Source: Rebecca billardiae RCC1528
Taxonomy: Eukaryota > Protista > Haptophyta
DNA: 64,000 nucleotides
Assembly (NCBI GenBank): GCA_965240325.2
Contig: OZ251222.1
Location: 5,022,001-5,086,000, forward strand
Direction of reading: 5' to 3'
Part shown: in pieces, positions 6,379 through 59,250 of the stretch
Position numbering within the stretch: position 1 is the stretch's first letter
Layout of the letters: each line of letters opens with the position of its first letter
Made by a program: the position numbers and the translations under genes
The notes under the pieces: generated by a model
Told to the model about the DNA's origin: nothing
What the model saw: the letters and a program-made list of their open reading frames with translations, nothing else
Database searches by the model: none

Positions 6379-6855
6379 ATGGAGCCGAAGTACGAGGGCC
6401 TGGACATCCGCCCGCTCTGCATCAGCGAGCCGTCCACGAAGGACGTGAAGCTGGTGCGGCTGTGCGGCGTGAAGGCGCTCGCCGCATCGACCGCGTCCGC
6501 TGAGATTGTCGCCGTGTCCGGCATCCGCGCGCTCTCGGCCAACACCGCCGCGCCGTTCGTCGTCGAGGCGGTGGGGCTCGACGTGTTCAATGCGTACGTC
6601 GTCTCGCCCCTCCCGCTCCTGCTCACCGGCATCGAGGTCGGCAACCTGTACGCGGGCGCGCCCTCGCTCGCCGCGCTCAGCGGAGGCGTGTTCCTCTCGT
6701 CGCTGATCGCCTCGCCGGTCGGCGCGAGCGCGACGGGGGTGACGGGGTACAACCTCGAGGTGGGCAGCCCCGACGGGGCGTGGGTCGTCGGCCTCGAGGC
6801 CGCGCCGTCGTACGTCGTGGGCGGCAGCGCAGGCCATGGCGGTAGCGGGCACTGA
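6379..6855 (+). CDS. Hypothetical 158-aa hydrophobic protein
   Basis: ATG-initiated segment (MEPKYEGLDIRPL...) with strong C/G third-position bias; no family recognised. Confidence 0.6.
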   Translation: MEPKYEGLDIRPLCISEPSTKDVKLVRLCGVKALAASTASAEIVAVSGIRALSANTAAPFVVEAVGLDVFNAYVVSPLPLLLTGIEVGNLYAGAPSLAALSGGVFLSSLIASPVGASATGVTGYNLEVGSPDGAWVVGLEAAPSYVVGGSAGHGGSGH

Positions 6856-7998
6856 CGTCTGCCGTGCGCCACCGCGGCGGCGGCCCGTGACCTCCGTGTC
6901 CTGGTGGAAGACGGGCAGTGCTTGGCGCACGGTCCGCCCCAGCGCGGTGGCCCACCGTCGAGCACCGCCACCCGCCACCGCGCGGCGCCGTGCAGCGGAG
7001 GCCCGGCGGCGGGGCGGGGGGCCGGCAGCCGAGCACGGCCGTCACCGCGGGGCGGCCGCGGCGCCGGCGGGCGCGGCGCCGTCCGGCCTTATTGCCCTTG
7101 GAGGCTTGCTGCAGTTATACCACTGCGGGTCGCCTTAGGACCCGTTTATATCCCGCGACCGGAGTCCGAGTATAAGCTTGTTGGAGGGGTCGCGCGAACC
7201 GATTTAGCTCATCATCAGTCATCGTTTCGATTCGGGCTCATCAATTCATGAGACATTCTGAATCAACCCCTCCGCCAACATAACCGTAGTAAGTAGTCTC
7301 CTGTTGGACACCCATCGAGGGGCTGTAGTCCTGTCGTCCGCCAGTGATTGTATTCACACTGGTGCTGCATGCGGCCGCGTTTTGGTGAGCCTGTTAAACA
7401 TCCAGACCACTCTATCTCTACTGCTGCAAGATGCCAGTCATCGTCTGCCATACCGGATCAACTAGTCATGGACAGCGCAGCAGTCGTCCATGATCCTCAT
7501 CCCACCTCGTGGGCGAGCGCGTGCCTCCGGGAACCCAAACAACCTGAGTACATCCCATCCCACAAGGACGTCGCGCGCGTGACGGGCTGTCTGGGCTCTC
7601 CGCCGCCGTGCGCTGGCAAGGGGTGCACACTAGTGCGGAAAGACTGTGGCGTGAACGGTCGCGCGCGGCGTGGCGACGAACGGGACCGCGCGATCGCACA
7701 CAGCCGCGCGGATGGCAAACGGCATGCCACAGCGCCGCTGCCGCCGCCCAAGCGAGGTCGCGAGCGACTGCCCTTCGGATCGCGAGCCAGCGGCCCCGCG
7801 CCCCTCCCGCCGCCGGGGGCGAACTGACCGGCTCACCGCCGTGGGCCCGTGGCGCGACTTTCTGTTTCCGAAAGTTTTGTCGACGCTAACCTGTGGCTTA
7901 TCTCCTAAACCCCTGGACGGGTAAATCCAGGTCCCCCCCCCCCCCCCCCCCCCGGCCCACCGCCAAGTGGGTTGTAGGTACATACTCCCCCCCTCCCC

Positions 7999-8067
7999 CC
8001 CCTCCCGCGCGGAGCGCGGGAGGGGCCCTCCGCGCGGAGCGCGGGAAATCCCGCGCGGAGCGCGGGA
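7999..8067. repeat. Three tandem CCGCGC-GGA-GCGCGG triloop hairpins next to a long C run (7933-7953)
   Basis: Read directly at 7999-8025, 8030-8045 and 8049-8067. Confidence 0.85.
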
Positions 8068-8434
8068 CGATTTTTTGGGAGATGCGTCCGCCACCGCCGA
8101 TGAGAACAACGGTCGACGAAAATCCGAGACCGAAGAGTAAGACCGCGGACGTCCGCGGTTGTGCTCAAGGCAGGTGTCAGTGACGCCACGGTCAGTGACA
8201 GCGCCGCCGCAGATGTATAGTAGACATGCAGTTCAGACCTGTCTGCGCGCACGCCGCACGCGCCCGGCTGCGCGCCACTGACGACGTCCGCTCCTAGTCC
8301 TGTCAGAGCCTGCGTGCGGTGCCGTCATATGTTGGCACCATTCAGACCATTTATGACTCGGTCGAGAGACAGACAATCACTGGCAGCAATAATAACTATA
8401 GAGAATATCATTATATAAAAATAAGCAGACGGTC

Positions 8435-9490
8435 TGTCACGTGAAGAAACTGGGACTTCCTATCTGCGGATCTGGCCAAGAAACTGAGACTACGAGCCCC
8501 TGCTGACTGCCGCTGCCGGGCCGCCTGCGTCGGCGCCCTGGCGGCCGGCCCGCAGCCGCTCGGGCTGCGCGCGGTGCGGAGCGCGCCTAGCCTGGACTCC
8601 TAGGCACGTCATCAGCGCGCGCTGTTCTCGACCCGACTGGCGACTCTGGCTACAGGCAATTGCGGGCACGCAATAAGGAGCTGTCACGTTAAGAAACTGG
8701 GGCTTGCTATCTGCGGATCTGGCCTAGAAACTGAGACTAGCGATTGGCTGGTTCGCTATACGCATAGTCACACTAAGAAACCGGGACTACGTCGTCGCGG
8801 CTGACGAGTGGTCCGCCGAGGCACAGTCGGCCAGTGGGACGCGGCGCGCGGCCCGACTACGAGTACAGGCCGCCACGCGTCCCGACTTCTCCTGATGATG
8901 ACTGACTCCTGGCCAGTGCACCGCAGCATCCATGCGACATCATGCCAGATTTGCTCCAAAATGATGGCCCGCCATTTTTTTCTTCGGCCTCGCCGGCCGG
9001 GCCTAAAGACTCAGCGGGGGCTCTGCCCCCCTGCGCCCCCCGCGCCTGCGCGGCGGGCGGACCTAGCTAAGAAACTGAGACTCCGTAGGGGCTCGGGCTA
9101 CCGCCGCGGCTAAGAAACCGAGACTAGCAGTGAGATCTCTGACTTCTTATTGCCAGCGATTGCCTGTATAGTGCGCCGGCACCATGCAAAAGCATGCCAG
9201 ATTTGCTCCAAAATGGCCCAAAAGTTTCTCCGGCCTCGCCGGCCGGGCCTAAAGGTCTACTCAGCAGGGGGCTCTGCCCCCCTGCACCTGCGCGGCGGGC
9301 GGACCTACTTATACGGGAAATGAGACTCCGCCGCCTAGGCGCTAGGGCTACCGAACTGCTAACTGCTAAGACGAAACCGAGACTAGCCGTTGGATCTCTG
9401 ACGAATTCTTACGCCAGCAGTTTTATATATCCCATGGCCCAAATCCAGCCAAAGAGTAGGCCCAAAACAAACCTTCGCCTTGGGCCTGTG
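8435..9490 (+). repeat. Internally repetitive transposon-like non-coding block A (recurrent AAGAAACTGAGACT motif, GGGGGCTCTGCCCCC hairpins)
   Basis: The motif recurs about nine times; ~8910-9130 is duplicated at ~9170-9390; a diverged direct copy lies at 18165-18972. Confidence 0.75.
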
Positions 9491-10084
9491 AGGCTCTGGT
9501 TGAGGGCTCCGCTGCGTTTTTTGTCGGGCCTGGGCCGCAACCCGCGAACAATTCACGCTTTTTTTCGCGATGCCCGCGGTTCTGCCTTCCCATTGGTCGG
9601 TCGATGGATCATCTCAACTTCTCCCGGGACAAAGTGAGACATATTATCTCAATAGCATCTTTATGAATCTTTGGAATCAAAGTTGAAAGAGCCAATCGTC
9701 ATCCCGAAAGGCACGATGATGCCGATTCGGCCTAGCTGCAATCTTGTTAGCATCTCGGCCACTGTTCGCTGGATTTGTGCGGGTTTCTCAGCGGTCGAAG
9801 GGGTCTCAAGCAAAGTTGAAGGCTTGCGGGAGCGGAAAACTAGGAGACCGCGGCGAAGTGGCGACAGCTTGCGAAGGGCGTCCACGATGGGCCATACGGC
9901 TTACTGTGCAAGGCAACTCGTGCGGGATCGGGCGCGTACGGCGACGTTTGCATGGTCGTCAATGCGCAGGGTGGGCGGCCTGCGGTGAAACTCACACGAC
10001 GCCCGACCGCTGGCAACCACACCGCCGTCAGGCCGAGCTTGGCCGCACCCCGCGTGCGGCGTGGACCGGCCGCCGAGTGGCTTG

Positions 10085-10275
10085 CGGCCCGCTCAGCACG
10101 TACGTCGTCTCACGCATCGGGCCGAAGCAGAAGCGGCGGTACATGAAGCTGGCAGACTCGGTCATGGAGTGCTTGTCGGTGCCGTCGAACGTCCACCCAC
10201 CGACGTCCGTGCCGATGCCAAACTCCTTCTGCTGGCATCCGAGGCACTCGATGATCACGCCCTTCGCCTTCGGCT
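10085..10275 (-). pseudogene. Captured gene fragment, phospholipid scramblase-like
   Basis: Translates KPKAKGVIIECLGCQQKEFGIG...ESASFMYRRFCFGPMRETTYVL, resembling the scramblase ExxGCExxxEF and EESxxxxRxCxGPxR motifs. No start or continuation. Confidence 0.45.
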
Positions 10276-12015
10276 TGTGGAGGCGTCCACGGCGTACCCG
10301 TATTGATTGGGACAGGCGATGCGCGAGGACAGCTGAGGGCAAGCCAGCCCGCGCGGTCCGAGCGTGCGCAGCGCGCGCCGCTGGGCTTGCGTGGCGGCAA
10401 CAGGCTCCGTTGTGCGGCAGACGGTCGAGTCCGGGGCGCACACGTGCTGACGCAGTCGCCTACGCAACTGGCTTCGGCTGCCGTGCCTTCGCGGTCGTGC
10501 ACCAAGCCTGCGTCGCCGCGCGCCGACGCGCCGCCGGCGCGGCGGAGTGCGGGACGCGGTGCCGCCGCCAGTCAGTCGTCCGGCTGACGAGTCCGCGTCG
10601 TTCAGTCACACACGGACGACGGCTGCCGCGTAATGACCGGGCTGGCCCGCGGCCGCCCACCCAGCCAGTCCCAGGGTGTCCGGAGTCGTGACCGTTGGCA
10701 ACGGTCACGACAGTGCTCAGGCCTCCTCCGAGAAGTTCGGCGCGTCGGGCTCGATCGTCATGCCGGCTGTCATGCCGCGCGCGCTAAATATTATCGTCGT
10801 CGATCGATTAATAATCTAAACGGGCGCCGTCGCCATTGCAAACTTATTCAAAACTTAAACTACGTCCGTACCGTCGGCTAGTACCGCTCAGATACTGCTC
10901 CAGCAGTCAGACTGTCAGTCCGACGGTCACTCCGGGACCGCCGGACTCAGACTCAGTGCGTGACTTGTACTCTCCGGACCGGCACGGATGACCGCACGGT
11001 CCGACAGACGAGTCGGATCGACGGAGACAGGAGAGCCAGACTGAGACACGCGTCAGTTCGATAACGTGAGACAGTCATAGCACCGTACTCCGTAGTAGCC
11101 GACGAGGGCTCGGACAGTCGGACTCGACGTGTCAGTCCGTCAGACCGTCCGCCGTACGCGTCAGTGACGAGACAGCGGCGCCAGTCGGTCGCCAGTCGAG
11201 TCACTGACGTCGAGTGCGGCACCGGGGCGGGAGCCGGAGCCGCTGTCCGAGTGGCACGCGGGTCCGAGCAGTTACACCGTGACGCCCGGCCTAAGTCGGT
11301 CCGCGCAAGACAGAAGTCGTGAGAAGACGCCGGCGGATCTGATCTGACTTACTGAGACTGAGCAGATGGCATCATATTCATATATAGCAGCATGCTGATC
11401 ATATAATTATTATAAGTATATACCAGGTGGCCGCACGCCCTGCCTGAACCGGCAGCCGCGCTTTAGGGAAACACCATCCGGGGGGCCGCCTTTCACTTAA
11501 GGACACGCGGGTGGGTGATTACTGAACACGTGAACCATGTCCTTTTCGGACATACGCACACGCAAGATCTTGGGTACGCAGTCATACTATCTGAATCCTG
11601 AGCGCCCACAAGCCCTCTTGGGTCCATGATAGTCTGCCTCGTCAGCGAGCGTCCAAAAGCGAATCCGACGAAAGTTTTTGATTGAAAGCGAGCGCTTTCT
11701 CCAGACGAGACGGATTCCATTCTGGTCCGCTCGTTCCGAACCAAAAGGTCATGGATGCCGTTCCACGGCGCGCGCGCTGTTGGGGCGGGCGGCGAAGCGG
11801 TTTTGTCGGTGGGGTACGGTACAGTCTGTGGCGGGCCGGCGGTGGGTGAGCTACCTATGCAGTTTAGTTGCGCACGCTCGCTCGACGGCAGACCGGCCAT
11901 AATCATGCAAGTAGCAATAGCATCAAGCTGTATGTGTCCGCCACTCCGCCAAGTCAAGAAGTGCTAGTCCCTACTTAGTTACGCCGGCGGCCGGCGGGCA
12001 CATATCATTCACTAG

Positions 12016-12942
12016 AGACGGCACCCTCGACGCCACTATTGGCCTTCCGTACCCCGCCCGCCGCAAGCCCGCCGCACAATACTCAGCCGCGCTTGGCACT
12101 TCCACGCCGTCATCGGATCGGAGATGAAGACGGACTGCCTGGTCACAGCCTTTGACCTCCCCCTCCAGGGCTGGGGCACGCTGCGAGCGTACCACGAGCC
12201 GATGGGCCCGACGAAGCGTGACCTGGCGAAGTGCATCCACTACTGCCAGAAGGAGGGGCCGTCCAACTTCATCATCAGCGCCAACTGGGCAACCATTCCA
12301 GAGCACGTGTGCGGCGTCGACTGGGCGCGCGCGCTGCACGCAGCACAGTCTGCAGACGAGGCAGCGGACATCTTGCAGTGCGAGCACCCGTCGATCTACT
12401 ACCGCTACGGCCATGCCGTGCTCGCCATGATCCGCCACCGACACGGCAGCGGCGTCACGCCGCGCTTCGCCATGAGCTCGTTTGCGCGACTGCCGCTCGA
12501 CCTCTCTGATGGGATGGCTGTCGTGCTCGCAGGTGGATCCGGCCACGGCAAGACGGAGTTCGGGCTGTCGCACTTCGAGAACCCTCTTCTCGTGTCCGAG
12601 ATGGATGACCTGAAGGATTTGACGGCTCGCAACGACGGTATCGTCTTCGACGACATGGATTTCACGCACATGACGGCCAAGGCCGTGATCAAGATGCTCG
12701 ACCCCAACTACGAGCGATCGGTGCACACGCGCTACACGAATGCCAAGATCCCCGCAGACATGCCACGCGTGTTCACGACAAATCTGGCCATGCAGTACCC
12801 CTACGAGCACATCTTCCCGCCCGGTCGCAACCTCGAGCAGCAGCGTGCGCTCAACCGCCGCTTCAAAGTCGTGACGGTCGATGCCGACCTCTTTGCGGCG
12901 GCTCCCGCCGCCGGCGCGTCAGCGGCTGCCGTGCAGACGTGA
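12016..12942 (+). CDS. rep: CRESS-DNA-virus-like Rep (HUH endonuclease + SF3 helicase), copy 1; N-terminus disrupted or spliced
   Basis: Motif II WHFH (12094-12105, in frame upstream of the ATG at 12124), GRS-like AFDLP..YHEP, motif III YCQKEG (12241), Walker A GGSGHGKT, Walker B IVFDD, motif C FTTN, Arg finger ALNRRF. In-frame TAGs at 11965 and 12013. Confidence 0.92.
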   Translation, partial: RRHPRRHYWPSVPRPPQARRTILSRAWHFHAVIGSEMKTDCLVTAFDLPLQGWGTLRAYHEPMGPTKRDLAKCIHYCQKEGPSNFIISANWATIPEHVCGVDWARALHAAQSADEAADILQCEHPSIYYRYGHAVLAMIRHRHGSGVTPRFAMSSFARLPLDLSDGMAVVLAGGSGHGKTEFGLSHFENPLLVSEMDDLKDLTARNDGIVFDDMDFTHMTAKAVIKMLDPNYERSVHTRYTNAKIPADMPRVFTTNLAMQYPYEHIFPPGRNLEQQRALNRRFKVVTVDADLFAAAPAAGASAAAVQT

Positions 12943-14845
12943 GCCATCAGCAAGCGTGCGTCGGTGCATAGCCGCAAGATGCCCTGCTCAGCCCAGCTGA
13001 GCTGCTCAGACTGGCTTGACCCTCACGCTAGTGCCAGGCGGCCTGGCGGTGAGGCGCCGCGGCAGCGGGCCGCCCTTTCGTCAGCGGACTCAGCTGCGGC
13101 CCCGCCCTCTCTCGAGCGGCTTGCGGCGAGGGCGAGAACAGCGGTGAAACTGAAAACATGGGTTTCCTCGGGCCAATCAGGTTAGCGCAAACACACCGCG
13201 CAGCCTGAATGCGTTGAGAGGAGCTAGTACACCGACCCTGAATAGCCCTATGGACGAACTCGTTTTGCGGATGATGGAGGCCCCCAAGATTCCGCCGATG
13301 ATTCGGCACGATTAGGGAAGAATGCAAGCGTCCAACCGGTACAACATAAGAAGCCGCTGAGAAGTCTAGGCTCAAAAATGACCATAAGCCCCAATCGCGG
13401 GGCGTACGGTTGCGTGTGTTCGACAACTTGACCCTGAAATCAATTGGAGACCGGGTAGAGCGGTCTAAGGCGCGGCCGGCGTCAGACCGCCGACTCACGC
13501 ATATGACTTCTCCACCTGGTAATAGATTAAGCATCAGCCGTACCGCAGCAGTAAGGCTGATGTAGGCCGCCTGCGCGGCCCTGAGCGGGAGCCTGATGCC
13601 AGCTGACTCCTGTCTGAGGCGCGCCCGGCGCTGCCGCGCCCGGCACCCGGCTCCGGCGCGGCCGGTGCAGGTCAGCCGTCACTCGTCAGGGTGTCAGCGG
13701 TCAGGACCGCGTCCGGCGTCCAAAATCTACGAGCAGTCAGACTGTCAGTCCGACGGTCACTCCGGGACCGCCGGACTCAGACTCAGTGCGTGACTTGTAC
13801 TCTCCGGACCGGCACGGATGACCGCACGGTCCGACAGACGAGTCGGATCGACGGAGACAGGAGAGCCAGACTGAGACACGCGTCAGTTCGATAACGTGAG
13901 ACAGTCATAGCACCGTACTCCGTAGTAGCCGACGAGGGCTCGGACAGTCGGACTCGACGTGTCAGTCCGTCAGACCGTCCGCCGTACGCGTCAGTGACGA
14001 GACAGCGGCGCCAGTCGGTCGCCAGTCGAGTCACTGACGTCGAGTGCGGCACCGGGGCGGGAGCCGGAGCCGCTGTCCGAGTGGCACGCGGGTCCGAGCA
14101 GTTACACCGTGACGCCCGGCCTAAGTCGGTCCGCGCAAGACAGAAGTCGTGAGAAGACGCCGGCGGATCTGATCTGACTTACTGAGACTGAGCAGATGGC
14201 ATCATATTCATATATAGCAGCATGCTGATCATATAATTATTATAAGTATATACCAGGTGGCCGCACGCCCTGCCTGAACCGGCAGCCGCGCTTTAGGGAA
14301 ACACCATCCGGGGGGCCGCCTTTCACTTAAGGACACGCGGGTGGGTGATTACTGAACACGTGAACCATGTCCTTTTCGGACATACGCACACGCAAGATCT
14401 TGGGTACGCAGTCATACTATCTGAATCCTGAGCGCCCACAAGCCCTCTTGGGTCCATGATAGTCTGCCTCGTCAGCGAGCGTCCAAAAGCGAATCCGACG
14501 AAAGTTTTTGATTGAAAGCGAGCGCTTTCTCCAGACGAGACGGATTCCATTCTGGTCCGCTCGTTCCGAACCAAAAGGTCATGGATGCCGTTCCACGGCG
14601 CGCGCGCTGTTGGGGCGGGCGGCGAAGCGGTTTTGTCGGTGGGGTACGGTACAGTCTGTGGCGGGCCGGCGGTGGGTGAGCTACCTATGCAGTTTAGTTG
14701 CGCACGCTCGCTCGACGGCAGACCGGCCATAATCATGCAAGTAGCAATAGCATCAAGCTGTATGTGTCCGCCACTCCGCCAAGTCAAGAAGTGCTAGTCC
14801 CTACTTAGTTACGCCGGCGGCCGGCGGGCACATATCATTCACTAG

Positions 14846-15772
14846 AGACGGCACCCTCGACGCCACTATTGGCCTTCCGTACCCCGCCCGCCGCAAGCCC
14901 GCCGCACAATACTCAGCCGCGCTTGGCACTTCCACGCCGTCATCGGATCGGAGATGAAGACGGACTGCCTGGTCACAGCCTTTGACCTCCCCCTCCAGGG
15001 CTGGGGCACGCTGCGAGCGTACCACGAGCCGATGGGCCCGACGAAGCGTGACCTGGCGAAGTGCATCCACTACTGCCAGAAGGAGGGGCCGTCCAACTTC
15101 ATCATCAGCGCCAACTGGGCAACCATTCCAGAGCACGTGTGCGGCGTCGACTGGGCGCGCGCGCTGCACGCAGCACAGTCTGCAGACGAGGCAGCGGACA
15201 TCTTGCAGTGCGAGCACCCGTCGATCTACTACCGCTACGGCCATGCCGTGCTCGCCATGATCCGCCACCGACACGGCAGCGGCGTCACGCCGCGCTTCGC
15301 CATGAGCTCGTTTGCGCGACTGCCGCTCGACCTCTCTGATGGGATGGCTGTCGTGCTCGCAGGTGGATCCGGCCACGGCAAGACGGAGTTCGGGCTGTCG
15401 CACTTCGAGAACCCTCTTCTCGTGTCCGAGATGGATGACCTGAAGGATTTGACGGCTCGCAACGACGGTATCGTCTTCGACGACATGGATTTCACGCACA
15501 TGACGGCCAAGGCCGTGATCAAGATGCTCGACCCCAACTACGAGCGATCGGTGCACACGCGCTACACGAATGCCAAGATCCCCGCAGACATGCCACGCGT
15601 GTTCACGACAAATCTGGCCATGCAGTACCCCTACGAGCACATCTTCCCGCCCGGTCGCAACCTCGAGCAGCAGCGTGCGCTCAACCGCCGCTTCAAAGTC
15701 GTGACGGTCGATGCCGACCTCTTTGCGGCGGCTCCCGCCGCCGGCGCGTCAGCGGCTGCCGTGCAGACGTGA
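14846..15772 (+). CDS. rep: CRESS-DNA-virus-like Rep, copy 2 (same as copy 1)
   Basis: Same translation as copy 1, offset by 2830 bp (ATG at 14954). Confidence 0.92.
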   Translation, partial: RRHPRRHYWPSVPRPPQARRTILSRAWHFHAVIGSEMKTDCLVTAFDLPLQGWGTLRAYHEPMGPTKRDLAKCIHYCQKEGPSNFIISANWATIPEHVCGVDWARALHAAQSADEAADILQCEHPSIYYRYGHAVLAMIRHRHGSGVTPRFAMSSFARLPLDLSDGMAVVLAGGSGHGKTEFGLSHFENPLLVSEMDDLKDLTARNDGIVFDDMDFTHMTAKAVIKMLDPNYERSVHTRYTNAKIPADMPRVFTTNLAMQYPYEHIFPPGRNLEQQRALNRRFKVVTVDADLFAAAPAAGASAAAVQT

Positions 15773-16799
15773 GCCATCAGCAAGCGTGCGTCGGTGCATA
15801 GCCGCAAGATGCCCTGCTCAGCCCAGCTGAGCTGCTCAGACTGGCTTGACCCTCACGCTAGTGCCAGGCGGCCTGGCGGTGAGGCGCCGCGGCAGCGGGC
15901 CGCCCTTTCGTCAGCGGACTCAGCTGCGGCCCCGCCCTCTCTCGAGCGGCTTGCGGCGAGGGCGAGAACAGCGGTGAAACTGAAAACATGGGTTTCCTCG
16001 GGCCAATCAGGTTAGCGCAAACACACCGCGCAGCCTGAATGCGTTGAGAGGAGCTAGTACACCGACCCTGAATAGCCCTATGGACGAACTCGTTTTGCGG
16101 ATGATGGAGGCCCCCAAGATTCCGCCGATGATTCGGCACGATTAGGGAAGAATGCAAGCGTCCAACCGGTACAACATAAGAAGCCGCTGAGAAGTCTAGG
16201 CTCAAAAATGACCATAAGCCCCAATCGCGGGGCGTACGGTTGCGTGTGTTCGACAACTTGACCCTGAAATCAATTGGAGACCGGGTAGAGCGGTCTAAGG
16301 CGCGGCCGGCGTCAGACCGCCGACTCACGCATATGACTTCTCCACCTGGTAATAGATTAAGCATCAGCCGTACCGCAGCAGTAAGGCTGATGTAGGCCGC
16401 CTGCGCGGCCCTGAGCGGGAGCCTGATGCCAGCTGACTCCTGTCTGAGGCGCGCCCGGCGCTGCCGCGCCCGGCACCCGGCTCCGGCGCGGCCGGTGCAG
16501 GTCAGCCGTCACTCGTCAGGGTGTCAGCGGTCAGGACCGCGTCCGGCGTCCAAAATCTACGAGTCTGTCCGCGGTCTCGGCGCCCGGGTCCGGACCTTGA
16601 AGTCACTCAGCTGCGTCCGATGCCGCCATCCACAGAGGTATACAAAGTCCGTCTCCACGATCGTCAGAGTCACGCCGCCTCCTGACTAAGGCCGCCGGGC
16701 GCGCGCGCGTCGCGCCCCGGCCGTGAGGTGATCGTGAAGAACTGCGCGCGCGTACGGCGCGCGCGCGTGCCGCGAGGGCTGAATTGGAATGGAACCCTG

Positions 16800-17620
16800 C
16801 CGTGCCAGGATATGCCCATCGCCCTCTGTCCTCGGGCGTCGCCCGTCCCAATGAATACTGGTACGCAGTGGACACCTCCACCTGCAGGCGTACAAGCGAA
16901 CGGCGGCGGGCGACGAGGGGCACTGTGATGTGCGTGCTGCATCCAGGCAGCGCGCCGGACGCGTACCTGAGCTTCCTGAGAAGCTGGGCCTTGCATCGGG
17001 CTGTGCTGTTCTCGGCGGACGCGCGTCGTGTGAGCTTCACCATAGCCAGCCCACCCTGGGTGTCGACGACCTTGTAAACATCGCCATGCGTGCTCGTCAT
17101 CGTACCGCATAACGGTTCAGCCTCTCCGTAAGCCGCAGATGGGACATCCATCTGCTCGACTCCTCGCTGGGGAGCCTCGGGTCGCGCGCCGAATTCACCG
17201 ACTTGCGCGACCTCAGCAGCCGGCCGAGCGGCGCCCAGCCGCGCATGCTTGCCCCCTCAGCACGGCGCGGCGCGGCGTGCACTCGGGCCAACGGGTGCCG
17301 CACGACATTTAGATAAAGAGCTTCTGCTCCTGCACTCGCAGGTTCCATAGCACGAGCGCGCCCAAGGCGAAGAGGAAGGCGTCGACGGGTGCGGGCAGCG
17401 CGTGTTCGTCGTGCTCCCCCGAGGAGCGCGCCGAGGGCAACGCCACGTGCGCGGCGCCGGCGACGCCGGGCAGCGTGCTCATGGTGTCGTTGAGGAATTC
17501 CGAGATTCCTCTCCCAGACGCGGCGGCGGCGGTGAGGCCGCGCCGCCCTGCTTGGAAGGAGCTCCGACTCCCAAGAGGGCCTTCGGCTGCAAAGCTGATT
17601 CTCTTCCGATCTCCTAGCCG
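16800..17620 (-). repeat. Diverged inverted copy of ~9840-10340 with a different internal insertion
   Basis: The reverse complement of ~16825-16881 (GTGGAGGTGTCCACTGCGTACCAGTATTCATTGGGACGGGCGACGCCCGAGGACAG) matches ~10277-10332, and the reverse complement of ~17000-17150 matches ~9885-10026. Confidence 0.75.
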
Positions 17621-18164
17621 ATCTTCGTTTAGTCTATTGGTCCGACGAAGCACAGAAAATGTTTTTTTGGGGGCCTCGGCGTGCCGATCTCGCACGTTAG
17701 TTTGGCAAGCGGTACAGAAACGCTGCGCTCCCCCCTGCACCACCACCACCACCAGGCCACCACCACTGCTGGGCGTGCCAGGCGGGGCCCTGTCACCTGT
17801 GCCCCCGGACACACTGCTCGCCGTATGAGAAGCTCCTTATAGGCCACTGGCACGCATCGTGTATTTCATTAGAATAAAGCGCAGTCGCCACACGATGATA
17901 AGACTTATATATATATAATTATATGTATATATATAATTATTTATTATATATTAAGAAGCCGATCATCGTCAGTAGAGGCTCTCTGCTGCTAACTCATCTG
18001 CGCCTCCGCCTCTGACGCCGCTGGCGCCTAGCAGCAGCAATCGCGCTAAGCAGACAATCATATCGGGTCATCGAGCGGCGAGTGACTGGAGCACCAAGCC
18101 TGTATTAGTGTATAGGGCCTGACCAACGCCTGCAACGGGTGCGCCTGCATCCTGATGCAACATA

Positions 18165-18972
18165 TTGAGACTAGCAGTTTGCTGGTTCGCTATACGCACA
18201 GTCCCACGGAGAAATCGAGACTATATAAAAGCTACAGTGACATCCAATAATCGCTTACCGGCGGCCGGAGGCGGGCCCAGCCGCTCCGAGGGCGGCGCGC
18301 GCGCGGTGCAGCACGTCGCCTAGCGTGGACTCCAAGTCACGTCATCAGCGCCGGCGCTTCTCAGACCGCACTGGCAGTGCGCCGGCATCATGCGCAGCAT
18401 AAGGATGCTAGCAGATGTGCTTTAGTAGAATTGTGCTGCCAAAAAATTCTTCGGCCTCGCCGGCCTGGCCTAAAGACTGATGACAGCGTCTGAACGTCCG
18501 ACACTCGACAGCGGGGGGCACTGCCCCCCCGCGCCCCCCACGCCTCGGCGCGGCGAGCGGACCTAAATAACTGAGATCGACTCGTCCGTCCGTAGTAGGC
18601 GCGCTCTGGCTACCGATGCACCACCGCGATCTGAAACGGAGTCTACTAGCTAGTCTAAGTCTGTCTCTGAGCAGTCGGAGGATGGGACTTACGACTCTGA
18701 CCGACGACTAGTCGTCAATTCTGCATGATGACGAGTAAAATTGCGCCCGCGCGTCGTGATGGGCTGTGTCTTATCTGCAACTCAGAATATATGCATCATA
18801 TGAACATCATCACTATACGCTGATAGATTGCGCCCGCCTACGATGATTATATATATATATATATCGATATATATTAATGTAGCCTGATTGTAGCTTATTA
18901 TGTATTAAAATAATTGGGCCCGCCACCTGCCCTTATGAAGTAGGCCCATCAAAACAACCTTCGCCTCGGGCC
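18165..18972 (+). repeat. Diverged direct copy of block A
   Basis: Shared strings GCTGGTTCGCTATACGCA, CACGTCATCAGCGC, TTCTTCGGCCTCGCCGGCC..GCCTAAAGACT and AGTAGGCCC..AAAACAA.CCTTCGCCT.GGGCC. Confidence 0.75.
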
Positions 18973-19009
18973 GGCTGGCCCCCCCCGGGGGGGGGGGGGG
19001 GGGAGCGGG

Positions 19010-19860
19010 AGCAGCCGTGTGGGCAGCTGTGACGGCGGCGGCGTTGCCGCGTGCGCGCTACTCGGCGCGGCGAGTCAGCACGCAGCGGAGTGGCGAGCAG
19101 GCGGGGAGGTGCGCGGAGGTGGAGGGCCAGGAGTCGTTTGCGAGCAGCGTGCGCGGCAGCATCAGCTAAGGACCGCGTACTCGACCCCCCCCCCCCTCCC
19201 CCGCCCGGCCCATCGTGTCGCCGATCGGCGGCGGGCGGCGGCTGTGTGGACGGGTGACGGCGGCGGCGCGGCGGCGTGCGCGCTCGGCGGCGAGTGCGCA
19301 GCGGAGTGACGAGCGGGCGGGGGGAGGTGAGTGGCGGTGGATGGCGAGCAATCGCTTGCGAGCAGCGCGAGCGGTGACATCGGCTGGGGACCGAGCAACA
19401 CCCCCCTGCCCATTGTGTCGCCGGTGAGGAGCAGGTCAGGGCGGCGGCGGCAGCGGCGGCTGTGTGGGCGGCGGCGACGGCGGCGGCGGTGGCAGCGTGC
19501 GCGCTCGGCAACGCGTGCGCAGCGGAGTGGCGAGCGGGCGGGGGGAGGTGCGCGGCGGTGGAGGGCCAGGAGTCGTTTGGGAGCAGCGCGGGCGGCAACA
19601 TCGGCTGCGAACCGAGCACCCACCCCCTGCGGCCCATCGTGTCGCCAGTGACGAGCAGGTCGGCGGCGACGGCGGCGGCGGCGGCGGCGTGCGAGCTCGG
19701 CCGCGAGTGCACAGCGGAGTGGCGAGCGGGCCAGGGAAGGTGCGCGGCGGTGGAGGACCAGGAGTCATTCGCGAGCAGCGTGAGCGGCAACATCGGCAGG
19801 GGACCAAGCACCACCACCCCCTCCGATCGTGTCGCCGGTGAGCGGTCGGCGGCGGCGCCG
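19010..19860. repeat. Degenerate tandem repeat, about 4 units of ~190-220 bp
   Basis: Anchor AGCGGAGTG(G/A)CGAGC..GGAGGTG..GGTGGA..GAGCAGCG at ~19085, 19300, 19521 and 19713. Confidence 0.8.
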
Positions 19861-20350
19861 CACAGCATGCGCACCACACGAGTGAGGAAAGGCAACGCAG
19901 AGGAAGAGAGCAGCGGCGCAGCGCGCGCATACCACTCAGTGCGGGCTCAGCCCGCTCACACGAGAGCCCCTCCCCCACCCCCCACCCCCCACCCATGCTC
20001 TGGCCGGCAGAGGTGGTTGTGGCCGACAGCGGCGACGGCGGCGTCTTGCCTCCCGACGTCCGACTCGTCAGTTGCATGCACGACGGCAGTCATCGAAGAG
20101 CATGACTGGCGCGGACGAGACAGCGGCAGAAGCTGACTTCGCCAGAGACATGCAGCCTGCTGACCGTCGCGCTCCGAGCTCGAGAGCAAGCAGAAGCGGC
20201 GGCGCGAGGCGCGAGGCTGTGACTCCCGCGCTCCTGCCCATGTTGGGCTTGTCTCGGGCGGTGTCGTCGCTGTGGGCCGAGGCTCTTTGTTTGAGTGATG
20301 ACCGGGGCGCGGGCGGCCGCGAGTACGAACCCCCATTAGAGAGTTCGCCC

Positions 20351-20460
20351 GGGCATGCCCGGACGTGCTCTAATTACACTTACGGGGCATGCCGGGCATG
20401 CTCTATTTATCACACCCGGGCATGCCCCGTAAGTGCAATTAGAGCATGCCGGGCATGCCC
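20351..20460. repeat. Near-perfect ~45-bp-arm inverted repeat with repeated GGCATGC motifs
   Basis: TGCTCTAATTACACTTACGGGGCATGCC pairs with GGCATGCCCCGTAAGTGCAATTAGAGCA. Confidence 0.85.
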
Positions 20461-21356
20461 GCCATTTGATTAGGTACAATTCACCCGTCGCCCCCCGCCC
20501 CCCCCCCTGGGGGTCCGGGAGGCCGCGACCAGTGTCGACGCTGTGTCCGGGCGACGTCGCCAACTCGCCAAGCGGCGGCTGGAGGAGCGACGGGCGCGTG
20601 AGCGTGGCGGCTCGCGGGTATCACCGGCCTTGTGGCACGTAGTCGCGCGTGTGCGCGCCGTCGCATTGCGTGTACAACACCAGACGCTGACTCCCATGCC
20701 ATTGCCACGCACTGAAGACTGCCTCGGCACCTCGTGTCTGCGTTCAAATGCTCACGAAGCTGGCTCGCGGCGCTTGTGGCAGTGCCTAGCGTGCAAGAAG
20801 CTGCTACGAGTGGCGCCATAGCACTCAAGACCCGGCCGTCACGCATGGGGCTAGTCGGGTAGGCTAATATGTGCTATGGGCGACCAGAAAAGCAGCTCGA
20901 TCAGTGATCCGTGACTCTGGAAATGTCGCGCGGCACACACCGTTTGAAACGCGAGAGCGCGGCGCGTGCCTAACGTGACCTCTTTCAGGCGGCGTGCGGG
21001 GCCGGAAGTCCAGCGCGCGTGTACGTATACATTGTGGATACATACACCCACCTTCCCGAGCCATCTAATCGCGCCCAGGCTCCCCACATGTCGAATCGGC
21101 TGGCAGGAAGTGACCGCTCGGCACAAGCTCAAGCCCGCAAGTGGTTGCGCGCGCCAACCGCAAGGGCGACGAGCGAGGAGAGACATCAGCGGGCTGCTTT
21201 ATCGACGTTCCCCTGCGTCTTGGGGCCCGCCCCGCCCAGCGTGCCGCCACGGAACGCCCCGCAATCGACCGCTAGGACGCTCGGCGAGCACGCACCCACC
21301 GCCGCCACGGCAGCCGTCCCCCCGAGCCAGGGGTGTAGGGGACAAGCCTGTGGCGG

Positions 21357-22703
21357 TCCTCGCCCGGCGGCTTGCAAACCAAGCCCCCCAAAACCCCTCG
21401 CGCGGCGAAAGGCACCGTCCCTTAGGAGTCGATGCCTTCCGGGAGCTCTTTGAATACAGGTGGATACGGGTGGCCGACCCAACTCACGCGGAGGCCTCTC
21501 TCGGAGCATTGGGGTCGAAGGGGCGCCAGGGACGCGGACTTCAGGGGGTCCCTGGAGTTCCGCCGCAGCGCGCTTTCTGCGCTGCGGGCCCGTCTCCGCG
21601 CGTGGCGGCCGCAATGGCACTGTCCAACTAGCCCCTGGCACTGGCTGAGGCATGGGAATCGAGCTCAGAGACGCGCGCGCGGAGGAAAAGCGTGTGCATC
21701 GGCTCGGACGGTTGCTCTGGGACCTACCCACGCCAGCGCAACCGCGCCTTGCCTCGGAGTCCGCCCTTCCTGAGTCCGCGCACGCGCCTTGCGGCTTGAA
21801 ACGCTGGCGTTCGGCCTTGTGCGCGGGACTCATGAAACAAGGCGAAGGCGGCGAGAAGCGCGACCTGGCGCGTGCGCAGACGACGTTCCACGACCAGGTG
21901 AGTTCAGCAAACATCGTGCGCCGTCGTGGCGACCCGCCAGTGGGCGCTCGTGCTCGTTCGCCCACGAGCCCTCGCCACGAGGCCCGCCGCCCGCTGAGTG
22001 TCCAGTTAGCCCCGGTGTCCAGTTGACCCGTATCCACCTGTACGCGTTTGCGCGTGCGCGGGCACTCCCGGACAGCCGCCGCCAAGAAGGCCAGCTGCGC
22101 GCGCCCTCCTCGGTCGTCCGCCGCGGCGCGTGCGCGTCGAGGCGCATGACGGGCTTTGCCGTGCACGTCGTGCCTGTGCTCGCGGCTCATGCACGTCTCA
22201 CGACCGAGATGCATGTCTTGCGCGCCCTCCTTTGGCTCGCACTGCGGTCTCCTCGTCGACAGCCTTGTGATCACGCGCGCCGCCATTTCAACCGGTTGCT
22301 GGCCTGCCAGCTGTCGAGCGTGCGTGTGCGGTCTGATCGATGTCGGCATGGCTGCCGGCGAAGCAGTGATGTTGAGTACACCCATACCCATCTCGCAGAA
22401 GCGAAAAAGCTGACCTTTGAATGCCCCAGGGGCGCACGCGTGCCCATCACGCTCGTCGGACAGGCCTTCTCCAGAACTGCGCTTGCCATCCGGCAGGTCT
22501 CTGCGCGCGGAGAGGGCGGCGAGGGCGTCGACGAGGCGGCACGATTGCTGCCTACGGGTCTTCTGGCTCCCACAAAGTGCCCGCGCACGGCTGTCACGCC
22601 CGCATGCGGCCTTGGGAGCGCTGCGCAGGCGGGCCCTCGCGTCGCCCAGTGCTCGCCATCCCGTTTTGGGGGGCTTGGTTTGCAAGCCGGGGCGGGCGAG
22701 GAC
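21357..22703. mobile_element. Probable decayed TIR element (~40-bp inverted repeats ~1.3 kb apart)
   Basis: GTCCTCGCCC..CGGCTTGCAAACCAAGCCCCCCAAAAC at 21357-21394 has an inverted copy at 22663-22703. No intact transposase or TSD seen. Confidence 0.5.
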
Positions 22704-23193
22704 CCCCCCGGAAGGGGTCCTCGCCTCCCGCAGTGGCGAGGGGGTCCTCCGCCTGGCACGATTTCGTCGCTCGAGTGCACTCCGACTCTACGGGGCATCC
22801 GAAGGTCCTGTGATTCCTGCACCTGCAATAATTAATGATATTGCCAAGCGGATCCAGATCGATCACGGGAAATCTCAGATCTCCCTGGTGGAGGGGCATC
22901 CAACCACAAAGCTTTCTCTCCGAAAGGGAGATAGCTATCTCCATTGGCGCAATCTCTCATTGATGAGCATCATGGAGGGAGATATAGTACGTATAGCAAT
23001 CAACGAAATGCTCTGTTGTGATTGGTGGAGGCTTCAGCGGTGAACCGGCGGAAATTCGGCCGACCGAACTTTCACCTTGAATTGACGACGCTGCCGTTGT
23101 GTGACACTGGACCCAGGTGACGACGAGACGACGACGACGAAAGGCGGAGGCTCCTAACGCCCCTTATTGGCTTCGCTGCGTGCCCCGGCGCCG

Positions 23194-26100
23194 ATGCCCA
23201 CCTCGAGGCGAACGCGAGCGACGCTCGCGGCGTGCGTGTGCGCGGCGGGCCGCGCGTCGGCCGAGCTGGTCGTGATCGCGGGCGCGCTCGCCGGCCTCTC
23301 CGTCCCCGCGCCGCGCTACGCGCTCTCGCCCGCGCTGCCGGCGCCGGAGGGCCCGCTGCTCGCGAGCGCGGCCGCCGACTGGGATGCGTCATCGTGCCCG
23401 CCGGTGTACGTGGGCGCGCGCGCGCTGGAGGGCGCGCTCGTGGTGCTCGTGGACAAGGCGCCGCGCTGCTCCGTCGAGGCGTACGTCAAGGCCTGCCGCG
23501 CCGAGCGCTGCGCCGCGCTGCTGCTCTACTCGAGCGAGGCGGAGCGTCGCGCGCACGTCGTGCCCGGCAAGGACGCGCGCGCCTTCGACGCGGCGGACGA
23601 GCGCGCGCCGATCAGCACGCCGATCGCGGCGTCGATCACGTCGGCCGCCGCCGCGCCGCTCGTGCGCGCGCTCCTCGCCGGCGAGCGCGCGCGCGGCGTG
23701 CTGCACGACGACGGGCTGAGCGCGTGGGCCGACCTCTTCGACGGCGCGCGCTGGGGCGGCGTGCGCGCGCTGGTGCTGCTGCAGACCGCCGAGCTGGCGG
23801 AGCTCGCGGCGTGCCGGCTGTACGCGTACACGCGCCCCGCCGCGGGCGCGCCCGACGTGCCGCCCCTCGCGCCGCTCGTGCTGCTGCTCGAGCTGACGCG
23901 CGCGGCCGCCACGCTCACCAGCTGGGGCGCGGACCCGCACGGCGGCCACGGCGCGCTCAGCACGGAGGCGCGCGCCGCGCTCGGCGCGGTGGCCGACACG
24001 CTCGGGCCGCTCGCCGCGGCGCTCTTCCTCGGTGCGCGCGCGCGCGCGACGCCCCGTCCCGCGCGGCGCCGAGCCGACGCGCCCGCGCCCGCTGACGCGC
24101 CCGCCCCTGCCACCGCACACCGCCACGCACACCGCCACGCACACCGCCAGTGCTCTTTGCGCGCGAGGCGCAGCGCGCGCGCGGCGCCCCGCTCGCGCTC
24201 GCGCGCGCGCCGTGCGCCACGGCGCTCGTGCTGTGCGTGTGCGCCGCGTGCGCGCTGCGCGTCGCCGCGTGCGCGCAGCTGCACTGGGCGGCGGCCGCGC
24301 CCGCGCCCGCCGCGGCCGCGCTGCCGGCCGCGTGCGCCGCGCTGCTGTGGTGCGCGCTGCTCGGCCTCGGCGGCCGCGCGTACGCGCGCGCGCGCGCCGA
24401 GGCGTCGCGCGGGCCACCGCGCCCGCGCGCGCTGCGCGCGCTGCTCGCGCGGATGCGCGCCTCGCTCGCGTGGGGGTGCGTCGGGCTGTGCGCGCAGCTC
24501 GCGCTCGCGGCCGGCGGCGCGTGCGCGCCCGGCGCGCTGCCCGCGCTCGCGCTGCTCGCGGGCACGGGCGGCGCGCGCGCCGGGTACGCGCGCGCGGACG
24601 CGCTCTGCCCGCCGCACGCGCGCGCGCCGCGCGGCCCGCTGCGCTGGGCGCGCGAGTCCACCTGGGCCTGCCTGCGCGCGCTGTGCGCGCGCGCGGCCGA
24701 GTGGGCTGCCGAGGGCGACGACGACGACGACGAGGAGGAGGGCGGCGGCAGCGGCAGCGGCGGCGGCAGCGGCAGGGCCTCGGCGCGCAAGCCGCTCGCA
24801 AGGCGCGACGGCGCGCTGCCGCGCGCGCAGCCCGCGGCCGCGCCGCGCGCGCCGCGCGCGCCGCGCGCCGGCCGCGCGCGCCGCGCGCCGCGCGCCGCCG
24901 CGCCGCCGGGCGGCGGCGGCGGCGGACGCGCGGCCGCCGCCGCCGCGCCGGGTGACGCGCGCGCGGACGGGCGCGCGCGCGCGCTCGAGGCGGTGCGCTG
25001 GTCGCTGGGCGCGCACGAGCTGCCCGCGCACACGCTGCTCGGCGTCTCGGCCGCGTTCATCGCGGAGTGGGCGGTGGCGCACGACGCGACGGCGGGCACC
25101 ACGCTCGGCGACGTGGTGCGCGGCCTCGGCCTCAAGGAGAAGCAGCGCGTCGCGCGCCAGCGCGCGCTCGGCCGCGGCGCGCGCGAGCTGCGCGCGGGCG
25201 GCGGGCGGCACTGCGTGGACGCGGAGCTGTGCGCGCAGCTCTCGCTGGCGGAGGTGTACTGCGGCGCGCGCACGCTGGACGGCGGCGCGGCGGTGGGCCC
25301 GGCGACGCACGTGCTGCTCTGCGCGCACGAGGCCGCGCTGCTCGACGTCGCGTACGCCGCGAGCGCGCTCGGCGGCGCCGCGCGCGTGTGGCTGGCCGCC
25401 TTCTGCGCGCGCCAGCCGCCGAGCGGCGAGACGGCGAGCGAGCTGGACGCGCACCGCACGCTGCTGGTCGCGCGGCGCGTGGGCCGCGCGGCGCTGCTGC
25501 TCGACGAGTGGGACGGCGCGGGCCACGCCGCGCCGCCGCGCCCGCTGCGCCGGCTGTGGGTGTGCGCCGAGCTCGCGCAGTGCGCGCGCGCGGGCGCGCG
25601 GCTCGAGCTGCTGCCCACGCGCGCCGCGCGCCCGCACCTCGACGCGCAGCTGGCGGCGGGCGGCGACGCGGCGCTGCAGGCGGCGCGCGCGCGGCTGTGC
25701 GCCGTGGACGCGCTGGCCGCGGCGTGCGAGACGGCGGAGGACGCGCGGCTCGCGTGGCGCGTCGCGCGCCGCGCGCTCGACGAGCCGCCGCACGCCGGCG
25801 TTGACGCACGCACCGACGCCGCGCCGCCCGCGGCGGCCGACGCGCGCGCCGAGCCCGCGCCGGCGCGGGCGCCGGCGCCGGCGCAGAACGCCGCGCCCGG
25901 CGCGGCGGCCTCGGTGGCGGCCTCGGTGGCGCTGCTCGGCCCGCCCGGGTACACGCCGCAGCCGCGCGAGCCGCCCGAGCCGCAGCCCGAGCCCGAGCCG
26001 GCCGAGCTCGCGCCGCGCCTCGACGCGTGCGTGCGCGCCGCGCTGTGCGGCGCGCTCGAGCGGTACCGCGCGGCGCTGCTCGACGGCAGCGGCCCGCCCG

Positions 26101-36336: not shown

Positions 36337-36546
36337 GGCGGCTTGTCGATATCAAGGCTGAGTCTCACGGCCCCGCCTCTTCCGGACGCCACGGCCCCGG
36401 GCAGCCCCGCCCAAGCAAGCGGCGTGGCGGCGTCGCGGCCCGGCCCCCGCGAAAGCGCATGCCGGCGTGAGCGGATCTCTGATCCGCTCGACCAGACTGG
36501 GCGCGCGGCGGGGGGAGGCTCCGTGCGCACTGCAGCAGCGGTGGCC

Positions 36547-37660: not shown

Positions 37661-37809
37661 GGTGGCCCGCCCGGCCTCGCCTCGCTCATCATTCTCACCC
37701 GCTGAGGGCGCGCATCCATCGCCCGCCCCCACGCACGCCCCGACCGGGCACGCCGAACGCGCGGGCCGTGCCGCAGCAGGCGTGCGGCCGGCGCGGCGGC
37801 GCCCGGGAG

Positions 37810-58770: not shown

Positions 58771-58885
58771 AGGGACGGTTACGGCAGCCATGCTGACCCA
58801 GACCAGCGCAGGTCGTCTCGGGGTACGCTGGTGGCGTCTCTGGATGCCCGGCGAGCACCTTGCTGCGGCGTCGACGTGCTAGCCG

Positions 58886-59250
58886 ACGGGCGTTAAGGAC
58901 TTGTTGAAGGACTTGGCGCCCGTCTCGGAGGTGATCGGCGTTGATGAGCTCGCTGGTAAGGTGTTCGCCGTCGACGCGAGCATCTGGATCCACCAGCTCG
59001 CCACTATCCATGCTGATGTGCTCGATGCGGGTGATTATCCAACGCGGCCTCTTCTTGTCGCGCGCGCGACGGCCCCATCGCATGGGACTGATTGCACAAG
59101 GTTGCCTGCGCGATAGTTTTGCGAGCGCGTCAGACTCGGCTGCTCGGAGCGATGCTGCGAATACGTGTGCGCGCCTGTCAACAGCGGGGCAATCCTTCAC
59201 CACGCGACCCTACTGGTTTCTGCGTGGGAACGATGGCGCAAGGGCAAGAC
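58886..59250 (+). pseudogene. Exo1/FEN1/XPG-family nuclease N-domain pseudogene
   Basis: (ACG)GVKDLLKDLAPVSEVIGVDELAGKVFAVDASIWIHQ matches the XPG-N consensus MG(I/V)xxL...GKxxAVDAxxWLH. The start codon reads ACG and the frame is lost after ~59040. Confidence 0.78.

Follow-up and report, generated by a model that had tools for sequence, protein, structure and literature searches.

The tandem repeat at positions 10902–16563 of the window, the 64,000-nucleotide stretch of DNA whose positions provide all coordinates given here, very probably consists of a 2.1-kb insert together with duplicated host flank. The insert lies in the genome of a GC-rich eukaryote, carries a truncated Rep gene, and apparently belongs to a large undescribed family of capsid-less Rep elements, which likely move as transposons. 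These data tie an orphan clade of CRESS-like Reps, previously represented only by short metagenome contigs, to a chromosomal element that is insertion-polymorphic and has defined ends, and through the window element the transition from virus to transposon becomes testable.

Anatomy of the locus and its empty allele

The repeat is formed by two head-to-tail units, as the initial annotation had described: all 2,832 positions are identical between 10902–13733 and 13732–16563, giving a period of 2,830 with a 2-bp AG overlap (13732–13733). We compared the window with four sequencing runs, X1 to X4, each as contigs. An X1 contig joins 11410 to 13530, jumping over 11411–13529 (14241–16359 in the coordinates of copy 2), and then runs onward to 17243. 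Because this contig skips the interval and continues into the right flank, approximately 730 bp of each unit are host flank. X1 contigs spanning 10788–11315 and 11303–11410 are unbroken across 10902, while X1 record 4 covers 13530–13733 and then continues at 16564, and X1 record 2 covers 16360–17243, unbroken at 16563/16564. At this locus X1 therefore carries the flanks but neither the element nor the duplication. X2 covers 10946–11148 and otherwise contains only flank and island pieces; the comparison of X3 and X4 with the window returned a single 35-base match that is less than 90% alike.

In copy 1, the duplicated host flanks lie at 10902–11420, which ends in an AT-rich tract and is represented in X1 and X2 contigs, and at 13522–13733. 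The 2,097-bp element core between them (11423–13519, plus strand), predicted to be non-autonomous, is skipped in X1 and is bounded by inverted repeats. The left end consists of a TA followed by the 8-bp terminal inverted repeat (TIR) CCAGGTGG (11421–11430, plus strand), 11 bases from the X1 breakpoint at 11410, and the right end of the 8-bp TIR followed by a TA (13512–13521, minus strand). Copy 2 has the same layout, with left flank at 13732–14250 (identical to 10902–11420), a 2,097-bp core at 14253–16349 (plus strand) that is also skipped in X1, TA dinucleotides at 14251–14252 and 16350–16351, and right flank at 16352–16563. The 8-bp inverted repeat is perfect, with a TA outside each end, and only 6 of 5,000 shuffles gave 8-bp ends with outer TA as good within 25 bases of both breakpoints; when the breakpoints are not used as a constraint, the repeat is weak (12 of 300 shuffles) and is not the best local match. 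Six letters lie between the two sides of the X1 junction, which is not letter-exact, and relative to the simplest preinsertion site 12 plus 2 AT-rich bases are missing, so a TA duplication is not proven. A circle junction that would take in the 9 bases to the right of the TIR was set aside, as those bases are present in the empty allele. The unit also contains an antisense ORF at 13031–13534.

Despite its empty site, X1 holds pieces of the element that are 0–1 letter off the window (14266–14638, 14793–14944, and 15438–15715), and at least two element variants are present in this run, one of which extends the Rep upstream in frame. X1 has a gap in cover over 15716–16350, which places the right end and any circle junction outside its view. 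X1 consists of contigs from a run whose kind is unrecorded, and because rare variants drop out of contigs, the filled allele may also be present in X1. Contig depths are 7–8 for the flank and 3–7 for the element pieces, and were not read as copy numbers.

The duplication junction, with its AG microhomology, is located inside host flank, ∼520 bp from the left and ∼210 bp from the right element ends. No origin-like hairpin was found at this junction, and an Rfam scan of 6,500–23,500 gave no match. The dimer is the least informative part of the locus; that it is an assembly duplication, rather than a tandem duplication in the cell, is the lesser though appreciable possibility.

The Rep gene and its clade

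The Rep ORF spans 12016–12942 (14846–15772 in the second copy), and the motifs reported for each unit by the initial annotation are indeed located in it: WHFH at 12094–12105, YCQK at 12241–12252, and the SF3 Walker A motif at 12532–12555. Single-sequence scans of this ORF against Pfam, PHROGs, and the PDB gave nothing significant, and only profiles gave matches. It matches relatives at 56% and 53% identity and is thus a real Rep. For the family, the Y1 HUH domain with a GRS-like segment gave profile matches with E values of 1.8e-7 and 1.2e-6, and its fold matches that of the TYLCV Rep (7vg8) with a TM score of 0.77. Homology to the family begins only at 12085, which corresponds to column 89 of the 379-column profile, and the gene is a 5′-truncated HUH–oligomerization–SF3 Rep (12085–12942 and, in copy 2, 14915–15772, both on the plus strand). 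It retains motif II, the GRS-like segment, motif III, Walker A and B, motif C, and the arginine finger, but by profile comparison motif I and the glutamic acid preceding motif II are absent. The first in-frame ATG, at 12124, follows motif II and leaves no usable start. Neither this truncation nor the presence of host flank in the unit had been noted in the initial annotation. With neither motif I nor a start before motif II, the window copy is, judging from its sequence, unlikely to drive replication. We also considered an intron that would supply motif I; this was rejected, as the upstream region contains no profile match or motif and the segment from the second X1 variant was not found in the window.

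In a quick tree of the nuclease (HUH) domain, the window Rep falls within a clade of 48 rows, for four loci of which DNA context was covered; in the helicase tree its rows did not come together in a single supported group (3 changes). The Rep clade is distinct and under purifying selection, with catalytic residues that are nearly invariant among 25–26 members and dN/dS values of 0.14–0.26 in all four Rep pairs. The Reps of the intact relatives contain a Y1 HUH domain, a helical middle/oligomerization domain, and an SF3 helicase, with HFH/HKH and HYCQK/YYTQK motifs and a clade-specific insertion, E-x-H-(x)n-P-x-D-P, preceding motif II. The earlier assignment to an undescribed group of geminivirus-like HUH+SF3 Reps is thus supported.

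The Reps of geminiviruses, genomoviruses, and unclassified CRESS viruses (TYLCV 7vg8 and 1l2m; Vientovirus 9pqq) share with the family the Y1 HUH domain, GRS-like segment, helical middle, and SF3 helicase, and this domain set is present in the intact relatives, whereas the window copy lacks motif I. Yet the family Rep is at most 28% identical to any viral model in BFVD. The clade-specific insertion also sets the family apart from CRESS viruses, and the motif was found in none of the 22 virus loci with distant Reps. Scans of viral contigs revealed no clade member, and neither did 60 and 54 candidate stretches from GTDB prokaryote genomes or the 72,556 plasmids of PLSDB. The family contigs are linear, with terminal direct repeats in none of four, compared with 18 of the 22 virus loci, and have a GC content of 56–61%, compared with 35–48% in all 22 virus loci. 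The GC3 values of the Rep genes are 0.64–0.84 for the family, 0.38–0.51 for four virus relatives, and 0.98 for two host genes.

Gene content, ends, and hairpins of the family

As the initial annotation had noted, the unit appears devoid of a capsid gene: none of the 25 stop-to-stop frames of at least 45 aa in its non-Rep parts matched Pfam (E ≤ 0.01), and none of the 112 non-Rep ORFs of related virus contigs matched the unit, while in a control both capsid ORFs of L001 and L002 were recognized. Extended to the relatives L003, L004, and L005, the Pfam search matched none of 50 frames (25 + 25), and no transposase gene was found by Pfam or frame searches inside the window element or these three loci. 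No gene besides the Rep was found in the family elements. The origin motif of CRESS-DNA viruses is a NANTATTAC-type nonanucleotide in a stem-loop. This nonanucleotide was found in none of the four family loci, and the unit contains a single 1-mismatch site of this type, around which no stem was seen by inspection.

TA-flanked inverted ends of 30–46 bp are present in two of the three full-length relatives. In L003 they lie at 435–466 and 2133–2164, and in L005 at 46–93 and 2604–2651, in each case with TA at the outer edge and with 0 of 300 shuffles as good in two tests; L005 also contains subterminal repeats. In L004, TA-anchored ends were not significant (149 of 300 shuffles). The ends of the window element, L003, and L005 have no common sequence. 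All three full-length relatives, L003 to L005, harbor a strong hairpin 80–200 bases upstream of the Rep start (z-scores of −6.4, −8.9, and −13.0), and no hairpin of this size was found in the window element.

Non-autonomous Tc1/mariner-type elements resemble the family in having TA-flanked inverted ends and subterminal repeats (as in L005), and the insertion of the window element in an AT-rich tract, with an empty allele in another run, is similarly like them. Unlike such elements, the family has as its cargo a conserved Rep of viral type together with a putative origin, and the ends of the window element are just 8 bp.

The nearest precedent comes from Tuber melanosporum, whose geminivirus-like transposon has 37-bp TIRs, a Rep, and two transposase ORFs; the available portion of the report describes no obvious target duplication for it and mentions no capsid (Liu et al. 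2011, PMC3198968). Like the family, this transposon places a geminivirus-like Rep inside TIRs in a eukaryote genome, a likeness of layout as judged from that partial description; in contrast, no transposase was found inside the elements analyzed here, TA adjoins their ends, and a hairpin precedes the Rep. Replitrons, as portrayed in the available text of Craig 2023 (PMC10288648), are mobile eukaryotic elements of 2–4 kb; they occur in few copies in algae and protists, and their only gene is a CRESS-related Y1 Rep, features of small size and gene content that the family shares. However, a helicase is described there as absent from Replitrons, whose Rep has the motifs HUQ and GYxxK and whose termini are short direct repeats. 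In the family, by contrast, an SF3 helicase is present, the motif is HxH, and the ends are inverted, and the Replitron Pfam models did not match the family Rep. Helitrons encode a Y2 Rep with an SF1B helicase, compared with the Y1 CRESS-type fold and SF3 helicase of the family, and the previous statement that the element is neither a Helitron nor a Replitron thus holds. Alphasatellites are capsid-less Rep replicons. So are pCRESS and the Pyropia pulchra plasmids/CRESSV6, according to the accessible part of PMC6668415, and all of these resemble the family in being Rep-only, with HUH and SF3 domains and no capsid; in contrast to the inverted ends and eukaryote-like DNA of the family, they are circular or, in bacteria, integrated at att repeats.

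Candidate routes of mobilization

We consider there to be about an even chance that the locus arose, in its entirety, from a capsid-less TIR element that carries a Rep, is moved in trans by a Tc1/mariner-type enzyme, and was subsequently duplicated in tandem with its flanks. TA plus a TIR is the Tc1/mariner signature. The window element would then likely be non-autonomous and belong to a family of transposons that carry a Rep but no capsid gene. In intact members, the Rep would bind the repeat-bearing hairpin upstream of its own gene and use rolling circle to copy element DNA that is excised or single-stranded; this would account for the conservation of the Rep. The DDE transposase of a partner element would recognize the ends and insert the element at TA. 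As the three sets of ends lack a common sequence, different helpers would be needed. An internal deletion may have removed the hairpin, the promoter, and the first 88 Rep profile columns of the window element while sparing its ends; insertion into an AT-rich intergenic tract would have been followed by microhomology-mediated tandem duplication of element and flank. The alternatives made testable are a Rep-amplified passenger of cut-and-paste transposases, which would be the Tuber layout minus the transposase, and a new class of HUH transposase that brings its own helicase.

The latter, in which the Rep itself is the transposase of a third eukaryotic HUH transposon group combining Y1 HUH and SF3 helicase, is unlikely. 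The Rep would cut an end between T and A, and its helicase would peel off one strand. The two ends would then be joined in a circle, and the hairpin at their junction, with TA at its tip, would be a CRESS-like origin split into the two "TIRs"; transfer of the strand to a TA in host DNA would leave TA on both sides with no duplication. An element that starts with A and finishes with T, inserted between T and A, would, as a matter of logic, look like a TA duplication. At its left end the window element has ten AT-rich bases more than X1, which could be flank that was carried along, as the available text on Replitron-1 describes for one of its ends (PMC10288648). The Rep being the sole gene found, its near-invariant catalytic residues and low dN/dS, and the 1.73-kb size of the L003 element, which has no space for a second gene, also favor such a role. 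However, the letters adjoining TA differ among the window element, L003, and L005 and include no common CRESS nick motif, the nonanucleotide is missing from all four family loci, symmetric 30- to 46-bp TIRs with subterminal repeats are unreported for HUH transposons in the available portion of PMC10288648, and an origin formed by the ends would make the internal hairpin superfluous. It is doubtful that a third HUH group exists after Helitrons and Replitrons in the fuller sense of a capsid-less CRESS Rep with SF3 that mimics Tc1/mariner ends, inserts at T^A, and numbers 48 or more divergent lineages in microbial eukaryotes rich in GC.

It is also improbable that the Reps are passive cargo, that is, genes endogenized from an ssDNA virus not yet sampled or from a Rep-only satellite, some of them captured by MITE-like elements, with no role in movement and with their conservation reflecting selection in the virus. 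The CRESS derivation of the Rep, the differing ends among relatives, and a window copy that is broken yet still polymorphic agree with this explanation, as does the under-sampling of ssDNA viruses in IMG/VR. Capsid-less endogenous Rep genes are, moreover, common in eukaryotes according to the available text of PMC3198968. Passive cargo would, however, require independent captures in L003 and L005 with the upstream hairpin intact, and the codon use shifted toward GC-rich hosts, the viral contig scans without a clade member, and the 22 virus loci without the clade motif also argue against it.

The remaining proposal, that of the initial annotation, treats the 2,830-bp unit as a circular replicon and the dimer as an integrated rolling-circle multimer; it is largely refuted by the empty allele in X1 and is very improbable. 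In its favor are the perfect identity of the head-to-tail units and their size, which is CRESS-like, and a one-off circle excised at the AG microhomology and reinserted would give the same structure. Against it, host flank makes up part of the unit, the junction lies at a distance from both ends of the element and without an origin-like hairpin, and neither motif I nor a start ahead of motif II is present in the Rep. The mobile HUH+SF3 class of that annotation survives in altered form, with a mobile core of 2,097 bp in place of the 2,830-bp replicon.

Element boundaries within the duplicated unit

The two head-to-tail units described in the initial annotation are identical throughout: 10902-13733 and 13732-16563 agree at 2,832/2,832 positions and have AG in common. 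The window is 72.5% GC and eukaryote-like, with genes split by introns, and the insertion site lies within a 63% GC island (7070-23100). Among the four sequencing runs listed, one, X1, which was searched as contigs, holds the locus. A single 998-base X1 contig covers 11303-11410, skips 2,119 bases and resumes at 13530; it then passes 13733 directly into 16564, reaching 17243. A second contig (10788-11315) bridges the duplication's left edge. Because the first skips the element and both cross a duplication edge, the X1 site is empty and unduplicated. The X1 flank also has a 14-base deletion compared with the window, and X1 thus likely represents another strain or haplotype. The empty-site junction is not letter-exact: its sides are separated by six letters, and 12 plus 2 AT-rich bases of the simplest pre-insertion site are missing.

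A perfect 8-bp inverted repeat, CCAGGTGG, adjoins both X1 breakpoints with TA outside each arm (in copy 1, TA and left arm at 11421-11430, right arm and TA at 13512-13521); the arms with TA have no further matches in the window except their own duplicates. Given the inexact X1 junction, the outer TA is a candidate target-site duplication. The inverted-repeat score is reached by 6/5,000 shuffles within 25 bases of the breakpoints and by 12/300 without that constraint. These ends delimit a core of 2,097 bp, the other 733 bp of each unit being flank. The duplication junction, a 2-bp microhomology, falls beyond the element ends, at distances of about 520 and 210 bases; from this we infer either a tandem duplication of the ordinary kind or one introduced in assembly, rather than a Rep-made multimer. 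The earlier reading of a 2,830-bp replicon with a rolling-circle dimer is not supported, given the flank content of the unit, the empty X1 allele and the junction position. Its companion claim, that the unit lacks a capsid ORF, stands: none was detected in the unit by Pfam on non-Rep frames or by comparison with viral non-Rep ORFs, and the positive control worked.

The truncated Rep of the window and its clade

ORF 12016-12942 had been taken for a CRESS-type HUH-SF3 Rep, and its kinship is upheld by Atlas, which puts it among CRESS Reps (scores 0.95-0.97), by profiles and by the fold of an intact relative, but the copy itself is, as read from the sequence, broken. It matches seven proteins among 5,503 candidates (top two, 56% and 53% identity). 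Two family profiles both start matching at 12085 (column 89 of 379 and column 84), and nothing upstream of 12085 scores against them. The first in-frame ATG comes after motif II, and in intact relatives motif I lies about 50 residues further upstream. X1 includes the window's own upstream junction (14793-14944) with 0 differences. A second X1 variant has a loose end that joins at that very base; by reading of 30 letters, it appears to run in frame into the E-x-H-(x)n-P-x-D-P segment that marks the clade before HUH motif II, and this segment was not found in the window. Over the Rep, an X1 contig has 6 extra bases at the position of 2 additional residues in the two closest relatives. Because the X1 variant and relatives keep segments absent from the window, the window copy would be an internal-deletion derivative. 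The identical derivative seems to be present in X1 away from this site, which hints that the element moved once truncated, with the limit that contigs drop rare alleles.

A profile built from 11 sequences recovered 32 proteins out of 7,997 candidates scored, their contigs ranging from 678 to 2,827 bases, and a representative search gave 2,508 matches at E<=0.001, 150 of them among the matches listed. For the tree, 81 near-full-length sequences of 196 matches were kept, 12 near-duplicates were removed, and the window copy, four virus Reps and three helicase-only relatives were added, for a total of 77 rows. In this quick HUH tree, 48 rows form one branch (SH-aLRT 97) that includes all 38 motif carriers and the window copy, with the four virus rows outside. 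The helicase tree did not recover the 48-row group (3 changes, weak support). The HUH profile picks out Rep structures of geminiviruses (E 1.8e-7 and 1.2e-6). The predicted structure of the intact Rep of metagenome locus L003 (pLDDT 84.7) matches PDB entries for the Reps of Vientovirus, AAV and geminiviruses; its matches in BFVD are unclassified CRESS Reps, which are no more than 28% identical to it. dN/dS is 0.14-0.26 in 4/4 pairs, with synonymous sites near saturation. No clade members were found in the GTDB genomes, plasmids or viral contigs searched; the 22 virus loci retrieved from the last have distant Reps, the motif being present in 0/22. For 22 of 24 clusters examined the contigs do not exceed 3.2 kb, and none of the 24 has an informative name.

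In two clade members, P0081 (675 aa) and P0179 (506 aa; a cluster of 23, on contigs up to 8 kb), HUH and SF3 follow a DnaJ domain that forms the N terminus of the fusion protein (Pfam E 2e-12 and 1e-11). This domain order is that of polyomavirus large T antigen; no P0179 locus was found in viral contigs.

Anatomy of relatives and possible modes of movement

One metagenome scan yielded four loci (L003-L006) from 314 candidate stretches; L006 is partial, and end tests cover L003-L005. In L003 the arms measure 32 bases, are 84% complementary and span 1,730 bp; those of L005 measure about 46 bases and span 2,604 bp, and L005 also has subterminal repeats. TA stands at the outer edge of the arms in both loci, and 0/300 shuffles reach the score in each; L004 has no significant ends (149/300). 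A long hairpin lies 80-200 bases before the Rep start in L003, L004 and L005 (z -6.4 to -13.0, for stretches chosen after the repeats were seen), and a whole-sequence scan found 15-34 pairs in these loci versus 10 in the window element. L004 (1037-1121), L005 (1137-1216) and L006 (244-265) have a repeated motif in this hairpin in common, the gapped pattern of which has 0 matches in viral contigs. In L004 its arms flank a TATA-like run; geminivirus iterons likewise enclose such a run. None of the four loci is a circular contig, and no second gene was recognised in them. To the right of the L005 element, the flank shows weak similarity to a RING-H2 exon (E 0.04-0.07). In L006 the Rep stops after the helical middle domain (1081-1143) and unrelated sequence follows, making it another truncated family member, without helicase.

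We give about an even chance to a Rep-carrying TIR element that the Rep would copy starting from the internal hairpin and that a Tc1/mariner-type enzyme acting in trans would insert at TA; the window copy would have arisen as a deletion derivative, later duplicated together with its flanks. A Rep within TIRs has its precedent in the geminivirus-like element of Tuber melanosporum, which carries transposases (PMC3198968); none was recognised in the window element or L003-L006. That the Rep is its own transposase is unlikely. As the initial annotation had held, Replitrons do not fit, differing in helicase, motifs and ends (PMC10288648); pCRESS and P. pulchra plasmids are further comparison systems (PMC6668415). 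Passive capture of viral Rep genes, in keeping with the viral fold matches, is slightly less probable than Rep as its own transposase, and a 2,830-bp replicon is very improbable, given the junction outside the element ends and the empty, unduplicated X1 site. In full-text literature outside subscription journals, we found neither the 48-row clade nor any HUH+SF3 TIR family without a transposase described; the Liu 2011 and Kazlauskas 2019 supplements could list members.

Other features of the window

Two degraded paralogous coding remnants, 9844-10332 (+) and 16826-17110 (-), lie inverted on the two sides of the insertion site, facing one another; each opens with a kinase-like Gly-rich stretch and Lys motif, and neither has a Pfam match. 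Degenerate repeats at 8400-9400 and 18160-18570 contain short GC hairpins and a motif of 12-14 bases that is iterated; the stack of several divergent X1 contigs there suggests that the low-GC island houses a further dispersed family. At 21352-22707, inverted repeats of 45 bp (91%) flank a 1.36-kb stretch with overlapping long frames (no Pfam match). Two foldback elements of 1.12 kb, 28604-29731 and 36545-37662, are related, being 74% alike over 183 bp; their near-perfect arms measure 424 and 398 bp, their ends begin CAAGGG, and 7-bp direct repeats lie outside. We take these ends to resemble those of P-superfamily non-autonomous elements. Direct repeats of 0.3-0.9 kb each (76-92% identity) cluster at 49600-60800, and a tandem array with a 204-bp period occupies 60900-64000, cut by the window end.
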